A stretch of DNA of 64,000 nucleotides from Ignavibacteriales bacterium (lineage in GTDB: Bacteria > Bacteroidota > Ignavibacteria > Ignavibacteriales > Ignavibacteriaceae): the NCBI GenBank assembly GCA_016700155.1, contig CP065001.1, positions 2,746,659 to 2,810,658 on the forward strand, read 5' to 3'. The stretch's first letter is position 1, and every line of letters begins with the position of its first letter. A program made the position numbers and the translations under genes. Positions 6,901 to 41,348 of this stretch are shown here, piece after piece. Below the pieces are notes generated by a model, which was not told the origin of the DNA, made no database searches, and saw only the letters and a program-made list of their open reading frames with translations.

Positions 6901-8175
6901 TTAATCCATTATCATTCTTAAAAAGGAAGAACTGTCCTCTTCAAAGCTGTCTTCTTCCTCTTTCTTTTTTGCTTTTTCCCGCGACCAGCCATAACGTGAT
7001 GCATCAGGATTGAATCCGGTTTTAGGTGTTTCATCCTGATTTTCATCCAGCGATTGTTTTGGTAGTTTCACCCTGATAATTGTTGGCACATCCAGATTAT
7101 CTTTATCAACATCTTTTGCATCACCAAAATCAAAACCACCGTTGATTATATAACTGTCATTCGATTTTACAGTCTGCGGTTTAGAGTTCTTGGATGAATA
7201 AATCTGTTGTGTACCATCAAACCCTGTTGCAATAACAGTGTATGAAACGTAATCATTCATTTCTTCTTTTCTAACGCATCCGAAAATTACATTGGCTTCT
7301 TCTCCGGCAGCTTCAAAGATTACATTGTTACCTTCATTAATTTCCTGCATCGTAAGATTGTTCGAGCCGGTAACATTCAGCAATACACTCTTTGCGCCTT
7401 TAATGTTTATACCTTCAAGCAACGGACTTGAGATAGCTTTTTGGGCTGCTTCAATTGCTCTGTTCTCACCGCTTGCTATTCCGCATCCCATTAAGGCTTC
7501 ACCGCTCTGGTTCATAACCGAACGCACATCAGCGAAATCTACATTAATCAATCCTTCCACAGTGATGATATCAGCTATACCACGTGTTGCTTCGTAAAGA
7601 ACTTCATTTGGTTTATCGAAAGCTGTAAATGCATTAGTGTTTTTGTCAAGAATGCTTAACAGTCTTTCATTAGGAATAACAATTAAGCTATCAACATATT
7701 GCTTAAACTCCTGTATTCCCTGCTCAGCATTAAGCATTCTCTTTTTACCTTCCCAACGGAAAGGTTTTGTAACAATACCCACAACAAGAGAACCGATACT
7801 TTTTGCTATTGACGCTACAACAGGTGCACCGCCTGTTCCGGTACCGCCGCCCATACCGGCGGTTACGAAAACCATGTCGCTGCCCGCAAGTGCGTCAGCT
7901 ATACGTTCCCTGTCTTCTTCAATTGATTTTTTCCCAACATTAGGATCCGCACCGGCACCCAAACCTCTTGTTATTCCCGCGCCACATTGAATTTTATGTG
8001 TTGCGCTGCTGCTATTTAAAACCTGCGCATCAGTATTCACGGCAATGTACTCAACACCGGTGAGTCCGCGTGCAATCATACTTTCAATTGCATTGCATCC
8101 ACCGCCACCAACGCCAACAACTTTTAGTACAGCAGAAGATGGTCTCTCTCGGTCTATAGTTGCAAATCGCGACAT
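6901..8175 (-). CDS. ftsZ: Cell division GTPase FtsZ
   Basis: Tubulin signature 'VVGVGGGGCNAIESM' and 'GGGTGTG' motifs. A long disordered C-terminal linker ends in a conserved acidic tail. It is the last gene of the dcw cluster. Confidence 0.95.
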   Translation of the reverse strand: MSRFATIDRERPSSAVLKVVGVGGGGCNAIESMIARGLTGVEYIAVNTDAQVLNSSSATHKIQCGAGITRGLGAGADPNVGKKSIEEDRERIADALAGSDMVFVTAGMGGGTGTGGAPVVASIAKSIGSLVVGIVTKPFRWEGKKRMLNAEQGIQEFKQYVDSLIVIPNERLLSILDKNTNAFTAFDKPNEVLYEATRGIADIITVEGLINVDFADVRSVMNQSGEALMGCGIASGENRAIEAAQKAISSPLLEGINIKGAKSVLLNVTGSNNLTMQEINEGNNVIFEAAGEEANVIFGCVRKEEMNDYVSYTVIATGFDGTQQIYSSKNSKPQTVKSNDSYIINGGFDFGDAKDVDKDNLDVPTIIRVKLPKQSLDENQDETPKTGFNPDASRYGWSREKAKKKEEEDSFEEDSSSFLRMIMD

Positions 8176-30992: not shown

Positions 30993-32996
30993 ATGGGAGA
31001 AGTCATGGAAAATGAACCCGCCGTTGTACAAGTTTCATTTCTTATAGTCGCAATAATAATTGCGGCATTCACATTACTGCTGATAATATTTAAATCACTA
31101 AAGAGCATTGGTCCTACCGAAATCGGTTTGGTGAATAAGAGATTTTCATTTTCTAAACTTGGCGATGATAACCCGATAGCGTTTAATGGTGAAGCAGGAT
31201 ACCAGGAAGAGCTATTAATGCCGGGCTTACGTTTTAAATTCTGGCCGGTATTTTATATTGAAAAACATCCGTGGGTACAGGTGCCCGCAGGTGAAATAGG
31301 TGTTGTTATTGCTCAGGTTGGAAAGCCTCTTCCAATGGGTGCCAAATCCGCGGTGTATAAAAAAGAGTTCGGGAATTTTTTGAATATAAAAGAATTTATT
31401 TCACTCGGCGGACAGAAAGGTGTTCAGCGTCCCGTATTGCCTCCCGGTTCACTTGTACCGATTCACCCGGTTGGATTTTTGGTGATAACCAAAAAACAAG
31501 TTTACGGATTACCCGTTGCACCGGAGATACGTGACCTTGCAATAAAGCGGAACGGAGTTCTTACACCTGAAGCATTTGGTTTAAAACCAAACCAGCTTGA
31601 TGTTGTTTATATCGAACCGCAGAATGATTCAGACGGAAGAGTACAGGATGTTGTTGGAATTGTTACGGTGAACGACGGCGATCCGTTATCATCCGGAGAT
31701 ATTGCAAGCAGGCTTGGCGGGTTTGAGGATATTTCGCAGCTTGAAAACACAGCCAACACATCAGACATGCACCTGATGGAAACGATACTCGGAAATAAAA
31801 ATACAGTTCATAACAACTACCAGGACTTCCAGTCATTCATTGATAACGGCGGAAGAATCGGTCTGCAGCATGATCCATTGCTTTATGGTATGTACAACCT
31901 GAATCCATTCCTTGTTAATGTTGAAATAGCACCGATGCTGGTTATTGAACAAGGTGAAGTAGCAGTAATAAAATCTTATGTCGGTCTGCCTTCACAGGAT
32001 ACTTCCGGAACAGAATTTAAGTTTGGTTCCATTGTAAGACCGGGACACAGAGGTATATGGAGAGAAGCTTTACGCACGGGCAAGTATCCTTTAAACCCTC
32101 ATTGCTACAAAGCTGAAATTGTTCCGACTGCAATATTAAATCTTAACTGGGCAGAAGCTTCGTCACAGGCGCACAATCTTGACCAGAGTCTTAAGCAGAT
32201 TGTCGCAAAGTCGCGTGAAGGATTTGTGTTCAGGATTGATCTGCAGGTGCAGATACATATTCCGGATACACAGGCATCAAAAGTTATTTCGATGGTCGGT
32301 TCGGTGAGAAATCTTGTTAATGAAGTTTTACAGGCGGCAGTGGGAAATCACTTCCGTGATAAACTTCAGTCAATGCCGGCTATTTCGTTTATCGAAAGAA
32401 GAAATGAAATACAAACCGCGGCAACAGAATATATTGAAGCAAAGCTAAGAGATTATGTTGTTGAAACACGCGGCGTGTATATACAGGATGTTATTCTTCC
32501 TGAAGAGTTAGTGATGGTCCTTACACAAAGGGAAATTGCCAACCAGGAAATACAAACGTATAAGAAAAAAGAAGAAGCACAGCAGCAGAGGATATCAACT
32601 GAAAAAGCAAAAGGTACGGCAGATATGCAGGCGGAACTTGCAAAGTCCGCTGTTAATGTTGATATAAAAAAGAATGAAGCGGCGCAGGTAAAGATCCAGG
32701 CTGAAGCTTATCAATATAAAAAAGAAGCTGAGGGTCGCGGTGATTCCTTCTATGTAAATGAAACCGGTAGAGCAAAAGGCGCGGAGATTGAAGCTGTGGG
32801 ACTTGCAAGAGCAAAAGCCGCAGAGGAATTGCGCAAAGCTGTCGGTGAGCAAGGAACGACTCTCGTTAACGTAATTGACGCTGTAATGAAAGGTGATAAA
32901 AAGATAATGCCCGATATACTTGTTGCAGGCGGCGGCACCGGCGGCTCACTCGACGGACTTGCAGCAACGTTAATGAAATTTTTACAGACGAAGTAA
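30993..32996 (+). CDS. Flotillin-like SPFH/Band-7 domain membrane protein
   Basis: N-terminal TM helix and an SPFH domain, followed by a long Ala/Glu/Lys/Gln-rich coiled-coil 'flotillin' tail. Confidence 0.7.
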   Translation: MGEVMENEPAVVQVSFLIVAIIIAAFTLLLIIFKSLKSIGPTEIGLVNKRFSFSKLGDDNPIAFNGEAGYQEELLMPGLRFKFWPVFYIEKHPWVQVPAGEIGVVIAQVGKPLPMGAKSAVYKKEFGNFLNIKEFISLGGQKGVQRPVLPPGSLVPIHPVGFLVITKKQVYGLPVAPEIRDLAIKRNGVLTPEAFGLKPNQLDVVYIEPQNDSDGRVQDVVGIVTVNDGDPLSSGDIASRLGGFEDISQLENTANTSDMHLMETILGNKNTVHNNYQDFQSFIDNGGRIGLQHDPLLYGMYNLNPFLVNVEIAPMLVIEQGEVAVIKSYVGLPSQDTSGTEFKFGSIVRPGHRGIWREALRTGKYPLNPHCYKAEIVPTAILNLNWAEASSQAHNLDQSLKQIVAKSREGFVFRIDLQVQIHIPDTQASKVISMVGSVRNLVNEVLQAAVGNHFRDKLQSMPAISFIERRNEIQTAATEYIEAKLRDYVVETRGVYIQDVILPEELVMVLTQREIANQEIQTYKKKEEAQQQRISTEKAKGTADMQAELAKSAVNVDIKKNEAAQVKIQAEAYQYKKEAEGRGDSFYVNETGRAKGAEIEAVGLARAKAAEELRKAVGEQGTTLVNVIDAVMKGDKKIMPDILVAGGGTGGSLDGLAATLMKFLQTK

Positions 32997-33368
32997 GAAC
33001 ACTTAACATATCGATTCCCTCAGAGCAATTCCGTTTTGAGGGAATAGATTTTACTGATGATGGATATTGATGCTGGATACTGGATACTGGATGCTTGCTC
33101 TCTGATGCCGGATAATTCCTAAATCACAAATCGTTGATCTTCATTCGTTAATCATTCCTAAGTAATCCTATTCGTCTTTACCTCTGTATTCTGCTGCGTA
33201 ATAGTACACTGAACCGCATTCAATCAACAATTCTTTATGATGATTATGATTTTGACAGATAAACCCACAAAAAAACTACTGACTATTGTTTGAGTTCTTC
33301 TGTTTGAACTATTTGTCTATTTATCAGCTACAGGTGGAATCGTTAATCATATATGATAATGGTTCAGT

Positions 33369-33655
33369 TTGAGTGCATTTCTCATCACGTTTAGCATATT
33401 CCCGTTCACATTGAGTACATTCCCGTTCTCGTTTAGTACATTTCTGTTCACGTTAAGTACATTTCTGTTCACGTTGAGTACATTTCTGTTCACGTTTAAT
33501 ACATCCCGATTCACATTAAGTACATTTCAGTTCACATTAAGTACATTTCAGTTCACATTAAGTACACTTCCGTTCAAGTTAAGTACATTTCTATTCACGT
33601 TAAGTACATTTCCGTTCACATTAAGTACATTCCTGTTCACGTTTAGTACATTCCT
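33369..33655. repeat. Tandem array of about 13.7 copies of a 21-bp unit (consensus ttaagtacatttctgttcacg)
   Basis: Copies were read directly from the sequence. Because the 21-nt period is a multiple of three, an artefactual 106-aa ORF (FTLSTFL heptads, TTG start) runs through the array. Confidence 0.9.
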
Positions 33656-33705
33656 AAGAGAATTTTATTTGTTTTTGTTAAATAAATGAGGAAAAAGGTT
33701 GAGTT

Positions 33706-34101
33706 ATGTTAAAGTTTAATTTCAAGTCTGTGTTCGCTGCACGCGGGATTCAGAGTCCAACAGGGTTTTTAAGAAGGGCTGGGTTTTCTCCGCATACTGC
33801 TTCTTATATAGCAACGGGTAAGGTTGAGAAGTTGAATTTAAAGTTGTTAGAGAGGTTGTGCATTTTACTTAATTGCACTCCGCACGATTTGCTTGAGTGG
33901 GTTCCGGACACTAAGCTGGCTGACCCAGGCAGGTTTGAGTTGAGCAAGTTGGCTGGTGAGAGGAAAGTACATTCGCTGCAGGATGATTTGAGCGAACTGA
34001 CGCTGGGGAAGGTGGAGGAGGTGAAGAGGTTTATTGAGGAGAAGAGGAAAGAAACAACCTCACCCCCGCCCCCTCTCCTTGGTAAGGAGAGGGGTGAGTG
34101 A
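33706..34101 (+). CDS. XRE/Cro-C1-type helix-turn-helix DNA-binding protein
   Basis: '…ATGKVEKLNLKLLERLCILLNCTPHDLLEW' is an HTH_26-like motif. The last ~15 codons ('TTSPPPPLLGKERGE') are encoded by a GC-rich hairpin, so the true C-terminus may be altered. Confidence 0.65.
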   Translation: MLKFNFKSVFAARGIQSPTGFLRRAGFSPHTASYIATGKVEKLNLKLLERLCILLNCTPHDLLEWVPDTKLADPGRFELSKLAGERKVHSLQDDLSELTLGKVEEVKRFIEEKRKETTSPPPPLLGKERGE

Positions 34102-34204
34102 TGAGAAGATTTTTTTATTTAAATTTACGGCGGTAATTGTTGTTCACCGGGACGCCTTGAACAACATCTGCAGAATTACCGACCCCCAGCCCGGTGACGT
34201 TCCT

Positions 34205-34231
34205 GCCCGGCGTCCCGGGCGTTTTTATTTT
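34205..34231 (+). terminator. Rho-independent terminator (GCCCGG-cgtc-CCGGGC plus TTTTTATTTT)
   Basis: A 6-bp GC stem with a T-tract closes a roughly 130-nt GC-rich, hairpin-dense segment (34060-34235) downstream of the HTH gene. Confidence 0.65.
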
Positions 34232-34451
34232 AAATATTGAAAGTACTTATGAATTAATATAAGTTGGAATTGATTTTATACGCCCCTTTAGAATCCTTTA
34301 AATCCCGGGGCAGTGCTTTGAGGCAGTTGTACAGGTTTGGCTTGTATGTGGAAAGCGGATCGGGAGAAAAAATAGTTAAGAGTTTAAAATTATGAGTTAT
34401 GAATTGAAGGACAATTGGAACATATATCCACCTAAGGCGGACAAGTATGCA

Positions 34452-34487
34452 GCCGCGTGCGGGTCTATGTTCTTTATTTAACTAATT
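34452..34487 (+). promoter_or_regulatory. Copy 1 of the conserved island intergenic motif (CCGCgtGCGG palindrome, then GTTCTTTAtTTAAcTAAtt)
   Basis: The sequence is shared with copies at 35461..35504 and 36390..36447. It lies 40 nt upstream of the 34528 CDS. Confidence 0.5.
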
Positions 34488-34527
34488 CACGCAGGTTAAT
34501 TATAAGTTATATTACTAAGAGGAATCA

Positions 34528-35397
34528 ATGCAAGAAGAAAAAATTAAAAAAGGTTTTACGATAAACCAAAAATGGATATTCGCAATCGTATTCAATATCC
34601 TTTTATTGTTGATTGGATACAAAATAGTATTTGCAGATTATCTTATTGATTTAACAAAATTTACATTTTCAGATTTTCTTGCACTATTTCTAGCGCTTTT
34701 CTCAATTGCTATTTCAGTAGCCTTCTATTTTAAAGCAACAGATTCTAGCAGTCGCTTTTATGATAATACATATAAATTCACAAAAGACATTGCAGAATTA
34801 CTGGTTAAAATCGAAAGTAGTTTTGGGGAAAGATTAAAACATCTTGATGAGGGATATACAAGTATTAGGGATAAGTTTGATAAAATACCAAGTTCGACTA
34901 TTACTAAAGAAAAGGTTCAAACTCAAGAAGAGTTAGATGAGGTAAAAAAAGAATTTGAAAAGAAATTGAAAGAGAAAGAGACATTATTAAATGATACTCT
35001 ACAAAAAGCACATTCAAATGAAAAGGATAGAAAGTTTATAATAAATCAACTTAACAAAAAAGAAGTTGAGCTACAGCTTGAGAAAGAGAAAGTTGAATTA
35101 TTAGAAGAAAAATTGATGAGTTATAATAATTTGGAAAGAGAAAGAAGCAGAAAGTTTATTCCACCATCAACGAAAATGTTATGGATGCACTCGATTTTAA
35201 TCCCCTTAGGAGAAAAATTTATTAAAAATGCTTCTTATACTGAATTAAATAAAAAATTTCAAGAAAATTTAAAAAACTTTTCAGAGAAAGCACTTCTAGA
35301 TGTATACAGATATGGAATGATGGATAAAGATAAAAATTTAACCGAAGAAGGTTTTCATTATTTAAAAGAACTAGCAAATAATACTGGCGTAATATAA
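34528..35397 (+). CDS. Hypothetical membrane protein: two N-terminal TM helices and a long cytoplasmic coiled coil
   Basis: Hydrophobic segments at about aa 15-35 and 48-68, then a K/E-rich heptad region ('LEKEKVELLEEKL'). No catalytic motif was recognised. Confidence 0.5.
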   Translation: MQEEKIKKGFTINQKWIFAIVFNILLLLIGYKIVFADYLIDLTKFTFSDFLALFLALFSIAISVAFYFKATDSSSRFYDNTYKFTKDIAELLVKIESSFGERLKHLDEGYTSIRDKFDKIPSSTITKEKVQTQEELDEVKKEFEKKLKEKETLLNDTLQKAHSNEKDRKFIINQLNKKEVELQLEKEKVELLEEKLMSYNNLERERSRKFIPPSTKMLWMHSILIPLGEKFIKNASYTELNKKFQENLKNFSEKALLDVYRYGMMDKDKNLTEEGFHYLKELANNTGVI

Positions 35398-35460
35398 CAA
35401 GTGCTTCAACCCGACAGCGTTTTCGCATTTGGTTTTTTTATAATTTTAGCGTTTAGTGCT

Positions 35461-35504
35461 CCGTTTCGGGTAACTTGTTCAAAGTGTTCTTACTAAATTA
35501 ATTT
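35461..35504 (+). promoter_or_regulatory. Copy 2 of the conserved island intergenic motif (…gtttcgggtaACTTGTTCAAAGTgTTCTTactAAATTAAttt)
   Basis: Shares the 'ttcgggt…acttgttcaaagt…tcttta.t.aattaa' core with copy 3. A perfect 13-bp palindrome follows at 35509..35546. Confidence 0.5.
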
Positions 35505-35508
35505 ACTT

Positions 35509-35546
35509 GCAAACCGTGCTTGCAAAGAAAGATAAGCACGGTTTGC
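35509..35546. repeat. Perfect 13-bp inverted repeat (GCAAACCGTGCTT … AAGCACGGTTTGC) with a 12-nt loop
   Basis: Read directly. It lies in the intergenic region between island genes 34528 and 35640. Confidence 0.85.
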
Positions 35547-35639
35547 TAAATCATCGGCAGTTGTAGTTTTATTTGGCAGTCTTGTTCTGGGCTGCGGGTT
35601 AAGCACAAAGCCGTTAGCAAGCTTAAAGAGCATATATAA

Positions 35640-36335
35640 ATGGAAACTATAATTGCAGTTACAATAGCAGTATTTGGTTGGTTGACAAATCATTTCCTTA
35701 CTTTGAGAGCCCAAAGGAAATCCTTTATGGATCATTTGATCAATAATGCAAGAATAGAAATATGTAATGGAATCCGTGACTATATAGATTGGTTGAATAA
35801 ACTTGTTCAACATAATGCTACAATAAGCTTAATTATTGATTTCCCCGGTCAAATTGATAAACTTGAAAAGCCCTATAAATTTTATATTATCGAAATTAGA
35901 AAAACACTTAAAGAAGTATTTCTTGATCCAAGATTTATAACATTACTAAGTGAATATGAAACACTATTTCCTGAAACAAAACAAATAAACTCATATATAC
36001 ATAGAAAGCATATTGCATTATACATAAATATTGAAAGTGCAATTATGTTTGAAAACGAAAATGAGATTGACAAAAATAATTTTTTAAAGGCCATAAAAAA
36101 ATTAGATTTTAATCTTGTTGGAGCTCAACAAGCAGCAGTTAGAGATTTATTAATTGTTTTACAAAACTTAACCTTAGGAAAAATTAAAAAGTATAAAAAA
36201 GAATTTTCTGCATATCCAATGACAAAGCATCCAAGAATATTGTTGGATAAAAATCGGAATATCAAAATAGTTCAATATGGCGAAAAAGATTATCCAATTA
36301 ATGCTGAATTAGATAAATTATTAGAAAATAAATAG
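35640..36335 (+). CDS. Hypothetical protein with an N-terminal TM anchor
   Basis: 'ETIIAVTIAVFGWLTNHFL' hydrophobic helix followed by a roughly 200-aa soluble domain with no known motif. Confidence 0.45.
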   Translation: METIIAVTIAVFGWLTNHFLTLRAQRKSFMDHLINNARIEICNGIRDYIDWLNKLVQHNATISLIIDFPGQIDKLEKPYKFYIIEIRKTLKEVFLDPRFITLLSEYETLFPETKQINSYIHRKHIALYINIESAIMFENENEIDKNNFLKAIKKLDFNLVGAQQAAVRDLLIVLQNLTLGKIKKYKKEFSAYPMTKHPRILLDKNRNIKIVQYGEKDYPINAELDKLLENK

Positions 36336-36389
36336 CTTGCTAACCTGTTGCTCAACGCCGACCGCTTCGCTTTAGCGGTGGTTTTCAAG

Positions 36390-36447
36390 TTTTCGGGTTG
36401 GTTCTTTTTAGCTGGTTACTTGTTCAAAGTTCTTTAGTTAATTAACC
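36390..36447 (+). promoter_or_regulatory. Copy 3 of the conserved island intergenic motif (ttttcgggt…ttACTTGTTCAAAGTTCTTTAgtTAATTAAcc), preceded by the ACCGC…GCGGT palindrome at 36361-36379
   Basis: Aligned by eye to copies 1 and 2. It lies 95 nt upstream of the 36542 CDS. Confidence 0.5.
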
Positions 36448-36541
36448 GTTTTTTTAATTTTAATTGTGGTGCTTTTCGGCTGCTTTCAAGTTATGGGCGG
36501 CGCGTTAGCAGCCACGCCGTTATAAATAAAAGGATTTGTAA

Positions 36542-37918
36542 ATGGAGTTTAAATATCCTAAGGACTTAATAAAAATTTTAAAAGAAAGATGGTTTAATTT
36601 TCAAAAAACGTTAGATACACCTTCGAAGAAGTTTAAAAAACAAAAGGATAAAGATTTTCCTAATGATAGAAATTTAAAAACGATATTGAATGTCATTTAC
36701 CATGCGTCATTTTTAACCGAGGAAAGTCGAAGGATTGCTTATAGAATAGGTTATGTGTCACCAGAAAAATGTGAACAAAAAATATCTGATATTAATATGA
36801 TTAGTGAGCCAATAAAATTATTAATTCCAGTTCCATTCACAGTTCAAGAGATATTAAAAATAGCACCTTCTGTTAATCCAAATCAGTCTCTAGTATTAAT
36901 TTCTGAAGGGGATAAAATTCAAACTAACTTAGAAAATAGTGAATTGTATATATGGGGAATACTTGATTTAGGTTCTGAATGGTGGGAAGTTGTCTCTGGT
37001 TTATCATCTGCTGCGATGTGTCCGCCAAATATTTTGACTGTAAGTTCCACTTCACCTGGAAATATTACGGTCACTACAATTGGTTCTGTATTGTTTCGGC
37101 TTTCAGCTGGTAAAATCTTGGGAACACCTTTAGAAGATTTAAGTTTGGGCTTAATTGGTGGATTTTTAGATAATAGCGCGAAGGCATTATATAGTGATTC
37201 GGTAAAAAGAATTAAAGTGGAAAAATATGATGAAAGAGAGGATTCAGATAAATACCCATACCAGACTTATTATCAAACATTCAACAGTATTCTGAATTTT
37301 GCAAAAGATAAATTACATGGAGCCACATTTATCGTAATTCCAGACGAAATAAATTACAATGATACTCGTTTAACAGATCGAATTAATATAAAATATATTT
37401 TCGATAAAGATATCATATGGGATAAGTTAATAGACTTATGTGAAGCCAATTATTTTTATTACAAGACATTATTTTATGATAAATTCAAAATGATTCTTGA
37501 TAAAAGGAAAGCATCACCGAAAGAATTAAAGGATCTAATTAAATGGGAAAATTCCAAACAGCAGCTTGAAAAAAAAATAATTGATATTGAAAAATTTATT
37601 GCTCAGTTATCTTGTGTTGATGGCGCTGTTGTTCTTACATCTAAATTAAGAATAATTGGTTATGGAGGTGAAATACTAGCTCAATCTTCTAGTTTGACCT
37701 CAATAAAATCTGCAAATGATCCGGATGCCAAATCTTATATAGAAGTAGATATAAATAATTTTGGAACTCGACATCGTTCAGCATTCAGAATGTGTTCAAG
37801 TTTTGATAATTGTGTCGCTTTTGTAATTTCCCAAGATGGAGGTATCAAGGCAGTTAAACGAAATGGACCCAATTTAATTTTGTGGAATAATGTTAATCTT
37901 GGAGAGACTAGTATTTAG
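36542..37918 (+). CDS. Diadenylate-cyclase (DAC/DisA_N)-like domain protein with an uncharacterised ~250-aa N-terminal domain
   Basis: The C-terminal half carries the three DAC hallmark motifs. They read 'HGATFIVIPDE' (cf. RHGALIVIE), 'DGAVVLTSKLRIIGYGG' (cf. HDGAVIxxxxRIxAAGC) and 'GTRHRSAF…VAFVISQDGG' (cf. GTRHRAA…VSEETG). An insertion of about 80 aa separates the first two motifs. The N-terminal region has no recognisable motif. Confidence 0.6.
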   Translation: MEFKYPKDLIKILKERWFNFQKTLDTPSKKFKKQKDKDFPNDRNLKTILNVIYHASFLTEESRRIAYRIGYVSPEKCEQKISDINMISEPIKLLIPVPFTVQEILKIAPSVNPNQSLVLISEGDKIQTNLENSELYIWGILDLGSEWWEVVSGLSSAAMCPPNILTVSSTSPGNITVTTIGSVLFRLSAGKILGTPLEDLSLGLIGGFLDNSAKALYSDSVKRIKVEKYDEREDSDKYPYQTYYQTFNSILNFAKDKLHGATFIVIPDEINYNDTRLTDRINIKYIFDKDIIWDKLIDLCEANYFYYKTLFYDKFKMILDKRKASPKELKDLIKWENSKQQLEKKIIDIEKFIAQLSCVDGAVVLTSKLRIIGYGGEILAQSSSLTSIKSANDPDAKSYIEVDINNFGTRHRSAFRMCSSFDNCVAFVISQDGGIKAVKRNGPNLILWNNVNLGETSI

Positions 37919-38026
37919 GTATCACCTCTTTAATCCGTCAAGACCGGACAAGTAAGTAAAGAGTCCATAAAGTGGCAAGCAATGGTACAAACAGTAAAAG
38001 TATATCAGTCCGAATAATTTAATTTT

Positions 38027-39266: not shown

Positions 39267-41348
39267 TCAGTTTACACTCTGCAATAAATTTATATTCTTT
39301 ACTTCACCGGCAATTAAAAGTGTGTCATCAATTTTTATAACGTAGTCAGGATTAGGAATTGCGTTAATCCTTTCACCTTTCTTCTCCTTGGTTTTGATCG
39401 AGAGAACATCAACCCCATATTCCTTACGGATATTTAATTGGCGGATCGATCTGCCGATAAAAGATGCGGGAGGTTTTATTTCAACTATTGAATACCCTTC
39501 CATAAACCTGTGGTGATGTTCATCATCCTTCATACTTATGCTGCTGGCAAGTGTTGAGGTGATGTCGCGGTTTTCAATTTCTTTCTGGTATGCGTCCTGT
39601 ATATCCTTACGCCAAAGCATACCGAGTATTTTTTTGCTTCCGGGTGATTCAACTACCGGGATTCCTTCGTAGTCATGTTTTTTCATTTTGTCCAAAGCTG
39701 CCTGGCAGTTCTCATCAGGAAAGGCTGTGTTAAAAACGGGGTCGGCAAAATCACCGGCGATGAGTAAATCCTTCAATGATTCTTTTTCAAAAAGATGTTC
39801 TTTGATATCATAGATAGATATCATTCCTTTTATTTCATCTTCTGAATTCAAGACGGGAAATTCAGGACTTTTACTTCTCAACACCCTGTTAACAACAAGG
39901 TTGAAATTTTCGTGTTCTCTTATCACATCAAATTCTTTTGAAAAAACATCACGCACATAAATAGATTCCATCACATTTATTTCAGCGCCTTCTCTTATCC
40001 CTATATTCTTCAGCAATAGTTTAAGAGTATAAATTGATTCGCGCGAAAGTTTGGATGAAACAAGTGTACTGATGATACATGTCACCATCAAAGGAAGGAT
40101 TATCCTGTAATCATTTGTAAGTTCAAACACGATGATGATGGCGGTTAACGGGGCTCTTGCGGTTCCGGCGACAAGTCCGCCCATTGCAACAACAGCGTAA
40201 GCGCCTGCGGGCGCTGTAATGTCGGGGAACAGATTATTGGACAGAACACCAAACGCATAGCCAAGCATCGCGCCCATATAAAGTGAAGGTGCAAATATAC
40301 CTCCAGATCCTCCTGAGCCAAGTGTAATAGACGTGGCGATGATCTTAACAAAAATTAATATGAATGCCGTATGCCACAACAGGTTTCCGTAAAAAGCATC
40401 ATCCATAGTTTCATAACCAACGCCCATAATCTGAGGATAGAGTAAAGCGATTAACCCGATTGCCAAACCGCCAAGTACAGGTTTTAAGTATTCCTGCATC
40501 TGAATTTTGTTGTCAAAAAAATCCTCAAAGAAATAAAGCACTTTTATAAAGAGGTAGGAAACCAAACCACTTGCGAGTCCCAGCACTAAGTAAATAATTA
40601 TTTCATAAGGCGAATAAAGATGAAACTGCGGAACAAGGAACGCAGCAAAGTTTCCTTCAAAGGTGTGTGAGATTAGTGTGGCCACAACCGCGGAAATAAT
40701 TATCGGCGCGAATTGAACAACGGCATAATCCATCAGTATAATTTCAACAGCGAATAACGCTCCGGCTATCGGCGCATTGAATGCAGCCGCAATACCGGCA
40801 GCGGCACCGCATCCGACAAATGTTTTTAATCTTTTACTTGATATGCGAAGGAACTGTCCGACTAATGAACCAAGGCTTGAACCGATCTGAATTATCGGTC
40901 CTTCCCTGCCAACCGATCCGCCGGTTCCGATTGTAATTGCAGATGATATCGTTTTAATGAATGCAACTCTTCCGCGGATCTTTCCGCCTTTCAAAAGAAT
41001 TGCCTGCATTACTTCGGGTACTCCGTGACCTTTTGCTTCAGGAGCAAAAAAATGTATCATCGGTCCGACAATTAATCCGCCGATCATAGGAACAAGAAGG
41101 ATTATATACCACGCGGAGTTTGTAACATCCTGGAGAAAATTTCCTTCACCGGGGAATGCTATATCCGCAACGAAGTGGATCATCAAGCGGATAAGCACTG
41201 CGGCAAATCCGGCAAGCACACCAATGATAACTGAAATACTTATCATAAATGTGTATTCAGTCATCTTCAGTTTTTCTATTGAATCAGCAACTGAGCGGGA
41301 GAACTTTGTGTATAACTTTGTAAGACTTTTCATAAACAAAAAAAACAA
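39267..41348 (-). CDS. ClC-family chloride channel/antiporter with a C-terminal CBS pair and an RCK_C (TrkA-C) domain
   Basis: 'GSVGREGP' and 'GGSGGIFAPSL' selectivity-filter motifs. The 693-aa protein has cytoplasmic regulatory domains. Confidence 0.8.
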   Translation of the reverse strand: MFFLFMKSLTKLYTKFSRSVADSIEKLKMTEYTFMISISVIIGVLAGFAAVLIRLMIHFVADIAFPGEGNFLQDVTNSAWYIILLVPMIGGLIVGPMIHFFAPEAKGHGVPEVMQAILLKGGKIRGRVAFIKTISSAITIGTGGSVGREGPIIQIGSSLGSLVGQFLRISSKRLKTFVGCGAAAGIAAAFNAPIAGALFAVEIILMDYAVVQFAPIIISAVVATLISHTFEGNFAAFLVPQFHLYSPYEIIIYLVLGLASGLVSYLFIKVLYFFEDFFDNKIQMQEYLKPVLGGLAIGLIALLYPQIMGVGYETMDDAFYGNLLWHTAFILIFVKIIATSITLGSGGSGGIFAPSLYMGAMLGYAFGVLSNNLFPDITAPAGAYAVVAMGGLVAGTARAPLTAIIIVFELTNDYRIILPLMVTCIISTLVSSKLSRESIYTLKLLLKNIGIREGAEINVMESIYVRDVFSKEFDVIREHENFNLVVNRVLRSKSPEFPVLNSEDEIKGMISIYDIKEHLFEKESLKDLLIAGDFADPVFNTAFPDENCQAALDKMKKHDYEGIPVVESPGSKKILGMLWRKDIQDAYQKEIENRDITSTLASSISMKDDEHHHRFMEGYSIVEIKPPASFIGRSIRQLNIRKEYGVDVLSIKTKEKKGERINAIPNPDYVIKIDDTLLIAGEVKNINLLQSVN

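Follow-up and report, generated by a model that had tools for sequence, protein, structure and literature searches.

What are the related intergenic elements that accompany three AT-rich, co-oriented genes in the genome of an Ignavibacteriales bacterium? The genes (g1, g2 and g3, in this order) lie between a Cro/C1-type helix-turn-helix (HTH) gene and a beta-lactamase-fold gene, in a 64,000-nt stretch of contig CP065001.1 (GenBank assembly GCA_016700155.1, positions 2,746,659 to 2,810,658) that is called the window here in its full length. A sequence-only reading of the window had described a GC-containing element ahead of each of the three genes, in three copies with a shared core, and had offered three explanations: a duplicated promoter or operator, a cassette-boundary element loosely analogous to attC sites, or a small repeat of the miniature inverted-repeat transposable element (MITE) type. 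The strings quoted in that reading were found at their coordinates, off by at most one base, and the spacings to the next ATG are 40, 135 and 95 nt, as it had stated. Our analysis indicates that 35392-35619 and 36338-36525 are very probably integron attC sites closing cassettes 1 and 2, with 34494-34512 as an attI-type junction. The 'three copies' are accordingly two attC sites and one attI-type junction, and the attC-like alternative holds literally, with R and L boxes, extrahelical bases, a boundary signature and an association with integrases in the wider family.

The intergenic segments downstream of g1 (IG2, 35398-35639) and g2 (IG3, 36336-36541) are 72% identical end to end, save for a hairpin insertion of ~40 nt in IG2, and their shared core pattern occurs twice in the window compared with 0.00 expected occurrences. 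A profile hidden Markov model trained without the window matched only attC1 and attC2 in the 64 kb (Table 1). The two elements lie 946 bp apart, start to start, both on the + strand. The relationship between copies 2 and 3 thus stands, although only the middle of each element had been seen in the sequence-only reading. Copy 1 (34452-34487) is not a member of the attC family: it agrees with copy 3 at only 18 of 22 positions, and neither copy 1 nor IG4 gave an attC-family match (nhmmer --max, 1.6 kb searched). The attC profile search also bore out the earlier remark that the HTH gene and the beta-lactamase-like gene have no similar element ahead of them.

The anatomy of the two elements is that of attC sites. 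Two bases past the R'' box, the 5' arm takes the form 6 nt-[C]-AAnnnG-[A]-Cnnn; in attC1 the arms are GTGCTT[C]AACCCG[A]CAGC and GCTGCGGGTTAAGCAC, and the 16-nt 3' arm is exactly complementary to the 5' arm once the bracketed bases are omitted. The GC palindromes that had been pointed out in copies 2 and 3 sit just 3' of the L'' arm; the conserved pairing is instead the long-range one between L'' and L'. The hairpin inserted in attC1 (35509-35546) has a perfect 13-bp stem. Beyond TAAC and GTTA, the purine/pyrimidine consensus of the R boxes (RYYYAAC and GTTRRRY) is only loosely kept.

Comparison with characterised sites places the unpaired bases where they would be expected. The extrahelical bases of attCaadA7 are G16 and T23 of the bottom strand, and VCR2 and attCoxa2 have a third (G16/N20/T24) (PMC5027507). 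Members of the window's family have their unpaired bases at the same positions, 16 and 23 of the top strand; 85 of 103 members have two, and a third is likewise present in attC2 and in 18 of the 103. Known attC sites (59-base elements), whether of sedentary chromosomal integrons or of mobile ones such as that with attCaadA7, are further alike in their R''/R' boxes, L stem, unpaired spacer between R and L, location 3' of a promoterless co-oriented open reading frame (ORF) and crossover between G and TT (G/TT), and the similarity of sites within the lineage is high, as among the Vibrio cholerae repeats (VCR). However, the family differs from known sites in its length of 188 or 228 bp, whereas the mobile-integron attC sites tested were of 57-70 bp (PMC5027507). 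In the central region, the short class lacks a conserved stem and the long class has only one inserted hairpin. Also, the part of the L stem ahead of the first extrahelical base is extended to 6 bp, so that the spacer is very asymmetric, with 2 nt on the 5' arm and 6 conserved nt (AAMGCC) on the 3' arm; that of attCaadA7 is less so.

The exact limits of the cassettes follow from the position of the crossover. Because it falls between the G and the TT of R', the bases that follow belong to the next cassette and should match the R'' box of that cassette. At the end of cassette 1, GTAATATAAC (35389-35398) equals the reverse complement of GTTATATTAC (34506-34515) without a mismatch; likewise, the 11 bases at 36334-36344, at the R'' box of attC2, are matched in full by the reverse complement of GTTAGCAAGCT (35613-35623). 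These complementarities of 10 and 11 bp therefore delimit cassettes 1 and 2 (Table 1). In 15 cassettes outside the window, the complementarity of R'' with the start of the cassette it belongs to has a mean length of 9.8 bp, compared with a mean of only 5.1 bp between R'' and the R' box at the 3' end of the same element (n = 91). Both window elements start in or beside the upstream stop codon and end 16-20 nt ahead of the next ATG, and a leader of 16-21 nt, counted from the 7-nt R' box or the junction G, precedes each + strand ORF.

Table 1. Predicted features of the island and its surroundings; coordinates are those of the window, and a slash within a sequence marks the crossover
Feature	Position	Strand	Details
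attI-type junction GGTTAATTATAAG/TTATAT	34494-34512	+	crossover G34506/T34507; left boundary of cassette 1; 3' neighbour of copy 1
attI-like region with copy 1 (CCGCGTGCGG, ATGTTCTTTA)	34446-34509	+	alignment to the L087 junction
attC1, long class, 228 bp	35392-35619	+	profile match E 1.9e-56; L''/L' pairing; bulges
attC1 R'' ATATAAC	35392-35398	+	overlaps stop codon of g1
attC1 L''	35401-35418	+	unpaired C35407 (position 16) and A35414 (position 23)
attC1 central region	35419-35590	+	includes hairpin 35509-35546 and core of copy 2 (35473-35501)
attC1 L'	35591-35606	+	
attC1 spacer AAAGCC	35607-35612	+	
attC1 R' GTTAGCA	35613-35619	+	
attC2, short class, 188 bp	36338-36525	+	profile match E 1.2e-30; row one of the alignment supporting the L stem
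attC2 R'' TGCTAAC	36338-36344	+	
attC2 L''	36347-36365	+	unpaired C36353 (position 16), C36359 (position 22) and A36361 (position 24)
attC2 central region		+	includes core of copy 3 (36418-36445)
attC2 L'	36497-36512	+	
attC2 spacer	36513-36518	+	
attC2 R' GTTATAA	36519-36525	+	
Cassette 1	34507-35613	+	attI-type G/TT to attC1 G/TT; start and R'' complementary over 10 bp
ORF g1	34528-35397	+	289 aa; no Pfam or PADLOC match
Cassette 2	35614-36519	+	flanked by attC1 and attC2; start and R'' complementary over 11 bp
ORF g2	35640-36335	+	231 aa; no Pfam or PADLOC match
Cassette 3	36520-37925	+	3' attC decayed
ORF g3	36542-37918	+	458 aa; DACNV sensor and DAC/DisA_N domains (Pfam); diadenylate-cyclase-like
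Cassette 3 R''-like GTATCAC	37919-37925	+	remnant, without L'/R' partner
Cassette 3 L''-like GTCAAGACCGGAC	37937-37949	+	remnant, without L'/R' partner
Cro/C1-type HTH gene	33706-34101		HTH_26 protein

The two sites belong to a large family. A metagenome scan with the 3' arm pattern returned at least 120 contigs, many with several matches. Among GTDB representative genomes scanned for the core, a single true relative was found, in an Ignavibacteria metagenome-assembled genome (MAG; locus L004, with related loci numbered likewise below), where three or more cassettes form an array that holds a close homologue of attC2. Two other matches, in Flavobacteriales (L002) and Colwellia (L003), lie by chance within coding sequence and were discarded. 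Profile searches with nhmmer identified at least 203 full-length elements in at least 122 contigs, with arrays of up to 8-9 and lengths that cluster at 188 and ~226-228 bp. Both arms were found in 103 elements, in 38 distinct combinations. The R'' consensus is RYMTAAC and R' is GTTA; an AAC could be located in 93 elements, and in 88 of these R'' precedes L'' by 2 nt. Among the 103 elements, C stands at -3 in 99, A at -5 in 101 and T at -6 in 97. The longest ORF is co-oriented with the element in 130 of 131 segments between elements, the median spacing is 744 bp, and the stop codon lies mostly 0-30 nt ahead of R'' or overlaps it. At least two elements occur on 87 contig-strands, and only one contig carries elements on both strands. 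Three contigs classed as viral in IMG/VR also carry family attC sites, one each in L125 and L127 and two in L126.

Integron integrases accompany the family. Those of L080 and L101, both on metagenome contigs, match TIGR02249, a model that recognises the extra domain of IntI, with 420-422 bits (cutoff 265). The L101 integrase is identical to a protein annotated as integron integrase in NCBI Ignavibacteriaceae MAGs, in which family attC sites flank it on both sides. Overall, family integrases carry this annotation in MAGs of Ignavibacteriaceae, Ignavibacterium and Ignavibacteriales. The association has been observed for the family (L080, L101 and L132-L134); the window has no IntI. Integrons of Ignavibacteriae and Chlorobi, and a layout in which intI points toward attI, have already been described (PMC9024848, PMC3607928). 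This Treponema-type layout, with intI transcribed toward attI, is also found in L080, L087 and the frameshifted second intI of L101, whereas the intact intI of L132-L134 follows the classical layout: it faces away from an attI junction that lies ~180 bp upstream of the gene start. Lacking intI, the window shows neither arrangement.

L101 and L132-L134, from NCBI/ENA Ignavibacteriaceae MAGs, carry two intI genes ~5.4 kb apart, one intact and divergent from the attI junction, the other frameshifted and co-oriented with its cassettes. The pair forms back-to-back integron platforms in one minus-strand array, the left part of which holds restriction-modification genes.

Pairing between the arms is evidenced by their covariation. 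Across the 38 distinct arm pairs, 90.6% of cells are paired compared with 74.6% after partner shuffling. RNAalifold, applied to 52 short-class and 33 long-class sequences, independently retrieved only the L''/L' stem with its bulged C and A and, in the long class, the inserted hairpin, which covaries across that class; compensatory changes were present at 7 of the 14 short-class pairs and at 16 of the 23 long-class pairs. Pair counting on the L helix gave a 16-bp stem with 95.5% of cells paired, 9 of the 16 pairs changed on both sides, and a covariation of 0.334 compared with 0.116 for shuffled data (reached in 0 of 500 shuffles). When the register is slid, pairing falls to 28-42% and covariation to ~0.03-0.05.

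The left boundary of cassette 1 is of a different kind. An attI site is unique, adjoins intI, ends in G/TT and receives the first cassette. Its 16-mer, at 14/16 identity, marks the first-cassette boundary in L047, L073, L080 and L107, and a near-identical motif occurs in L083; the variant ..TAAGTAATAG/TTA is found at this boundary in L087 and L101. In L080 the first cassette starts 108 nt past the stop of the TIGR02249 intI gene, at GGTTAATTAATAG/TTAGGC, and its start is complementary to its own R'' over 11 bp. Six related loci have an attC downstream, and in five of them such complementarity of the first cassette spans 8-13 bp; in the sixth, L087, it spans 4 bp. The 64 nt at 34446-34509 align locally with the integrase-proximal junction of L087, both ending at G/TTA, with a score of 32, compared with 19.4 +/- 2.9 and a maximum of 34 in 1000 shuffles. 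Further, the IntI proteins of L132 and L133 are the same, and the two loci agree base for base over the 88 nt up to TAAGTATTAGTTA, yet are unrelated from the next base, which is natural cassette turnover at the attI junction. The motif shared with the L080 type, the L087 alignment and the lack of an attC-profile match indicate that copy 1 belongs to an attI-type site rather than to a third attC, and it is best read as a putative site of this type. The assignment uses the motif and the first-cassette position common to the intI-adjacent junctions of L080, L087, L101 and L132-L134; the window has no adjacent intI.

Several observations weigh against an integron origin of the island. No integrase gene or remnant was found in the 64-kb window with a regular expression for the tyrosine-recombinase box. 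The central region, of ~132 nt in the 188-bp class or ~172 nt in the 228-bp class, exceeds the variable terminal structure of known attC sites, which is mostly a stem-loop and has a reported range of 20-100 nt (PMC4889954), and holds no conserved pairing apart from the optional hairpin. Minimum free energy (MFE) folds of isolated elements, on both strands, favour local hairpins and lack the L stem, and the folding z-score of attC2 is only -0.4 to -0.5. Also, part of the invariance of the 3' arm was imposed by the search pattern. This last point is mitigated by 81 elements outside the search pattern, which show further compensated arm variants; the covariation does not, therefore, stem from the way in which the elements were gathered. 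Because unconstrained MFE folding omits the L stem, support for the fold is comparative, not thermodynamic. The excess length is a quantitative departure and removes no recognition feature.

The central region does keep conserved blocks, namely CTTGTTC, at the centre of the core seen in the sequence-only reading, and two GGCA blocks, which stay conserved while the flanking L stems covary freely; the covarying hairpin is an optional module beside them. A second function of this long region, as opposed to that of a passive spacer, seems rather unlikely to us, though worth stating: it could bind a host factor, serve IntI as an accessory site, decide how very long sites fold or which strand is chosen, act as a signal for cassette expression, or be the guide-RNA target of the IS110-family elements that insert into these sites.

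The absence of an integrase has a counterpart among the relatives. In L073 only a 32-aa IntI fragment is left upstream of the same junction type, and such decay of intI therefore occurs. For the window, tblastn with three IntI sequences (E up to 100) returned only noise in the stretch 32900-34600, no IntI lies within ~34 kb upstream or ~27 kb downstream of the array, and none of the top 120 IntI relatives is on the source contig of the window, which is not proof of absence. With no intI in the window, the island is a degenerate integron resembling the attC clusters without an integron integrase that are known as CALIN; IntegronFinder applies this term where two or more attC sites share a strand within 4 kb and intI is missing from the neighbourhood (PMC4889954). 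The window is alike in its pair of same-strand attC sites, separated by less than 4 kb, its lack of intI and its cassette functions, which are unassigned or other than resistance. It differs in keeping an attI-type junction at its 5' end and in a last cassette without attC. Owing to the retained junction, the locus looks like a complete integron minus intI rather than a piece split off from an array. Judged from its sequence, the locus is a CALIN by the IntegronFinder definition and a probable remnant of an Ignavibacteria-type integron, and it most likely arose from a complete integron of this type.

Further features surround the island, which lies in the interval from SPFH (30993-32996) to ClC (39267-41348). 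The spacer between the HTH gene and the attI-type site is GC-rich at 34130-34231 and contains an inverted repeat (GGTAATTGTTGTTCA...TGAACAAC...AATTACC), with a terminator-like hairpin and T-run at 34204-34231 that may mark the site of intI loss. A 10-bp perfect direct repeat, CGGACAAGTA, at 34438-34447 (+) and 37945-37954, brackets the attI-like junction and the three cassettes. Its three copies in the window compare with 0.06 expected, and 0 of 100 shuffles reach three; both flanking copies lie within stretches that resemble attC L'' arms. The repeat could be a target-site duplication or a set of remnant arms. Directly upstream of the HTH gene, at 33372-33652, 13.4 tandem copies of a 21-bp unit (AGTACATTTCTGTTCACGTTA, 81% matches) resemble iterons or an operator array and are unrelated to the attC family.

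Could the repeats instead be duplicated promoters or operators, bound for example by the adjacent HTH protein and driving each island gene? Elements are present upstream of all three genes, an HTH_26 protein is encoded next door, and a sigma-70-like match (9/12) runs across the attI-type junction at 34486-34513. However, the shared core has no promoter-like site, the regional count of a sigma-70 scan being 25 compared with 26.2 in shuffled sequence, and neither TAnnTTTG (the Bacteroidetes-type -7 motif) nor extended -10 motifs show enrichment across 87 members of the family. A long-range covarying stem is nothing that an operator requires, nor does an operator account for elements that begin at or in the upstream stop codon and stop short of the next ATG by the distance given above. 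In addition, more than 200 relatives flank unrelated genes, and an HTH homologue was found in none of those loci. We regard the promoter or operator explanation as very improbable. A repetitive extragenic palindromic (REP) or MITE-like repeat or a terminator family, unrelated to site-specific recombination, would fit the intergenic location and the inverted repeats, the attC1 hairpin with its perfect stem in particular. It is contradicted by the strict co-orientation of the copies with the flanking ORFs, by tandem arrays of up to 8-9, and by a window with only two copies, both within the island. No T-tract follows the hairpin, and no terminator was called in the elements. Such repeats would also leave unexplained the 10-12-bp complementarity between a cassette start and its own R'', and the association of the family with IntI counts against them; we give this explanation hardly any credence.

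The elements might also be true recombination sites that serve an enzyme other than IntI, such as a Xer-like or other tyrosine recombinase or an IS110-family enzyme. A non-IntI tyrosine recombinase (L061, 1413-2348; 204 bits, below the TIGR02249 cutoff of 265) is indeed encoded ~50 bp from a family attC, in divergent orientation, and IS110-family transposases recur in the arrays. But the L061 enzyme is a single case, the IS110 elements interrupt sites at R'' and do not flank cassettes, the full canonical attC anatomy is present with its extrahelical base positions, and the cassette turnover at the attI junction lies beside a true IntI. A recombinase of another kind is thus extremely unlikely to be the enzyme concerned, and recognition of these attC sites by an integron integrase is the reading retained here.

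The IS110-family insertion sequences (IS), which carry DEDD_Tnp_IS110 and Transposase_20 domains, have inserted at one and the same point, at or within R'', of no fewer than 12 independent attC sites (L004 ~7100-8000, L045 476-1390, L009, L014, L020, L024, L050, L056, L063, L081 and L103), with a conserved end ..CTTTTTACTTATTGGAAATAT. Insertion sequences of the IS110/IS1111 family that target attC form the IS1111-attC group (PMC11187229). The IS end found here abuts R'' likewise, and a DEDD/IS110 transposase adjoins the site in L004, L045, L009, L014 and L024. The likeness is one of behaviour in related loci, not in the window, and these elements are putative members of the subgroup.

What do the cassettes carry? 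PADLOC gave no defence annotation for any of them, g3 included, and no homologues of g1, g2 or the HTH protein were detected in 120 related loci. Exact-protein look-ups for an empty-site context gave, where they gave anything, just a 7-kb Logan contig arranged in the same way. For g3, 265 relatives were found. One in L129 (6001-7392, 52% identity) has a complete family attC on both sides; another in L128 (1360-2736, 81% identity) has a family attC upstream and only the 5' part of one downstream. A DACNV-DAC gene of the g3 type thus travels as a cassette elsewhere as well. In the window, the R'' expected for cassette 3 (TTTATTTATAAC) is absent downstream of g3 and of the beta-lactamase-like gene. 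GGTATCAC (37918-37925) is complementary to the cassette start of L128, GTGATACC, and not to the start of cassette 3 itself, which indicates mutational decay. Cassette 3 has lost its attC and is hence fixed.

By analogy with characterised integrons, the bottom strand of each attC would fold so that R'' pairs with R' and L'' with L', the latter two forming the second box bound by the integrase, and the extrahelical bases left by this folding would orient the integron integrase IntI, which would cut between the G and the TT of the R' box. Recombination of attC with attC, or of attI with attC, would excise a cassette as a circle, and recombination of attI with attC would insert one. The window holds three promoterless, co-oriented single-ORF cassettes of this kind without intI, as a CALIN-type remnant in which mobilisation in trans may still be possible for cassettes 1 and 2. 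Because an integrase gene or remnant is missing from the window, that its own attC sites are still recombined is something we infer.

These findings turn an unexplained island into an attI remnant with three cassettes of exact boundaries, and show annotators which of its genes are mobile cargo. They also document a large attC family, of at least 203 members, that is typical of Ignavibacteria. The default size limit for attC sites in IntegronFinder is 200 bp, which the 228-bp class exceeds. As sites of 188 and 228 bp reach or exceed the size anticipated by common integron finders, arrays of this family may be under-called in metagenomes. Further, the family provides natural material on the folding and recognition of very long attC sites.

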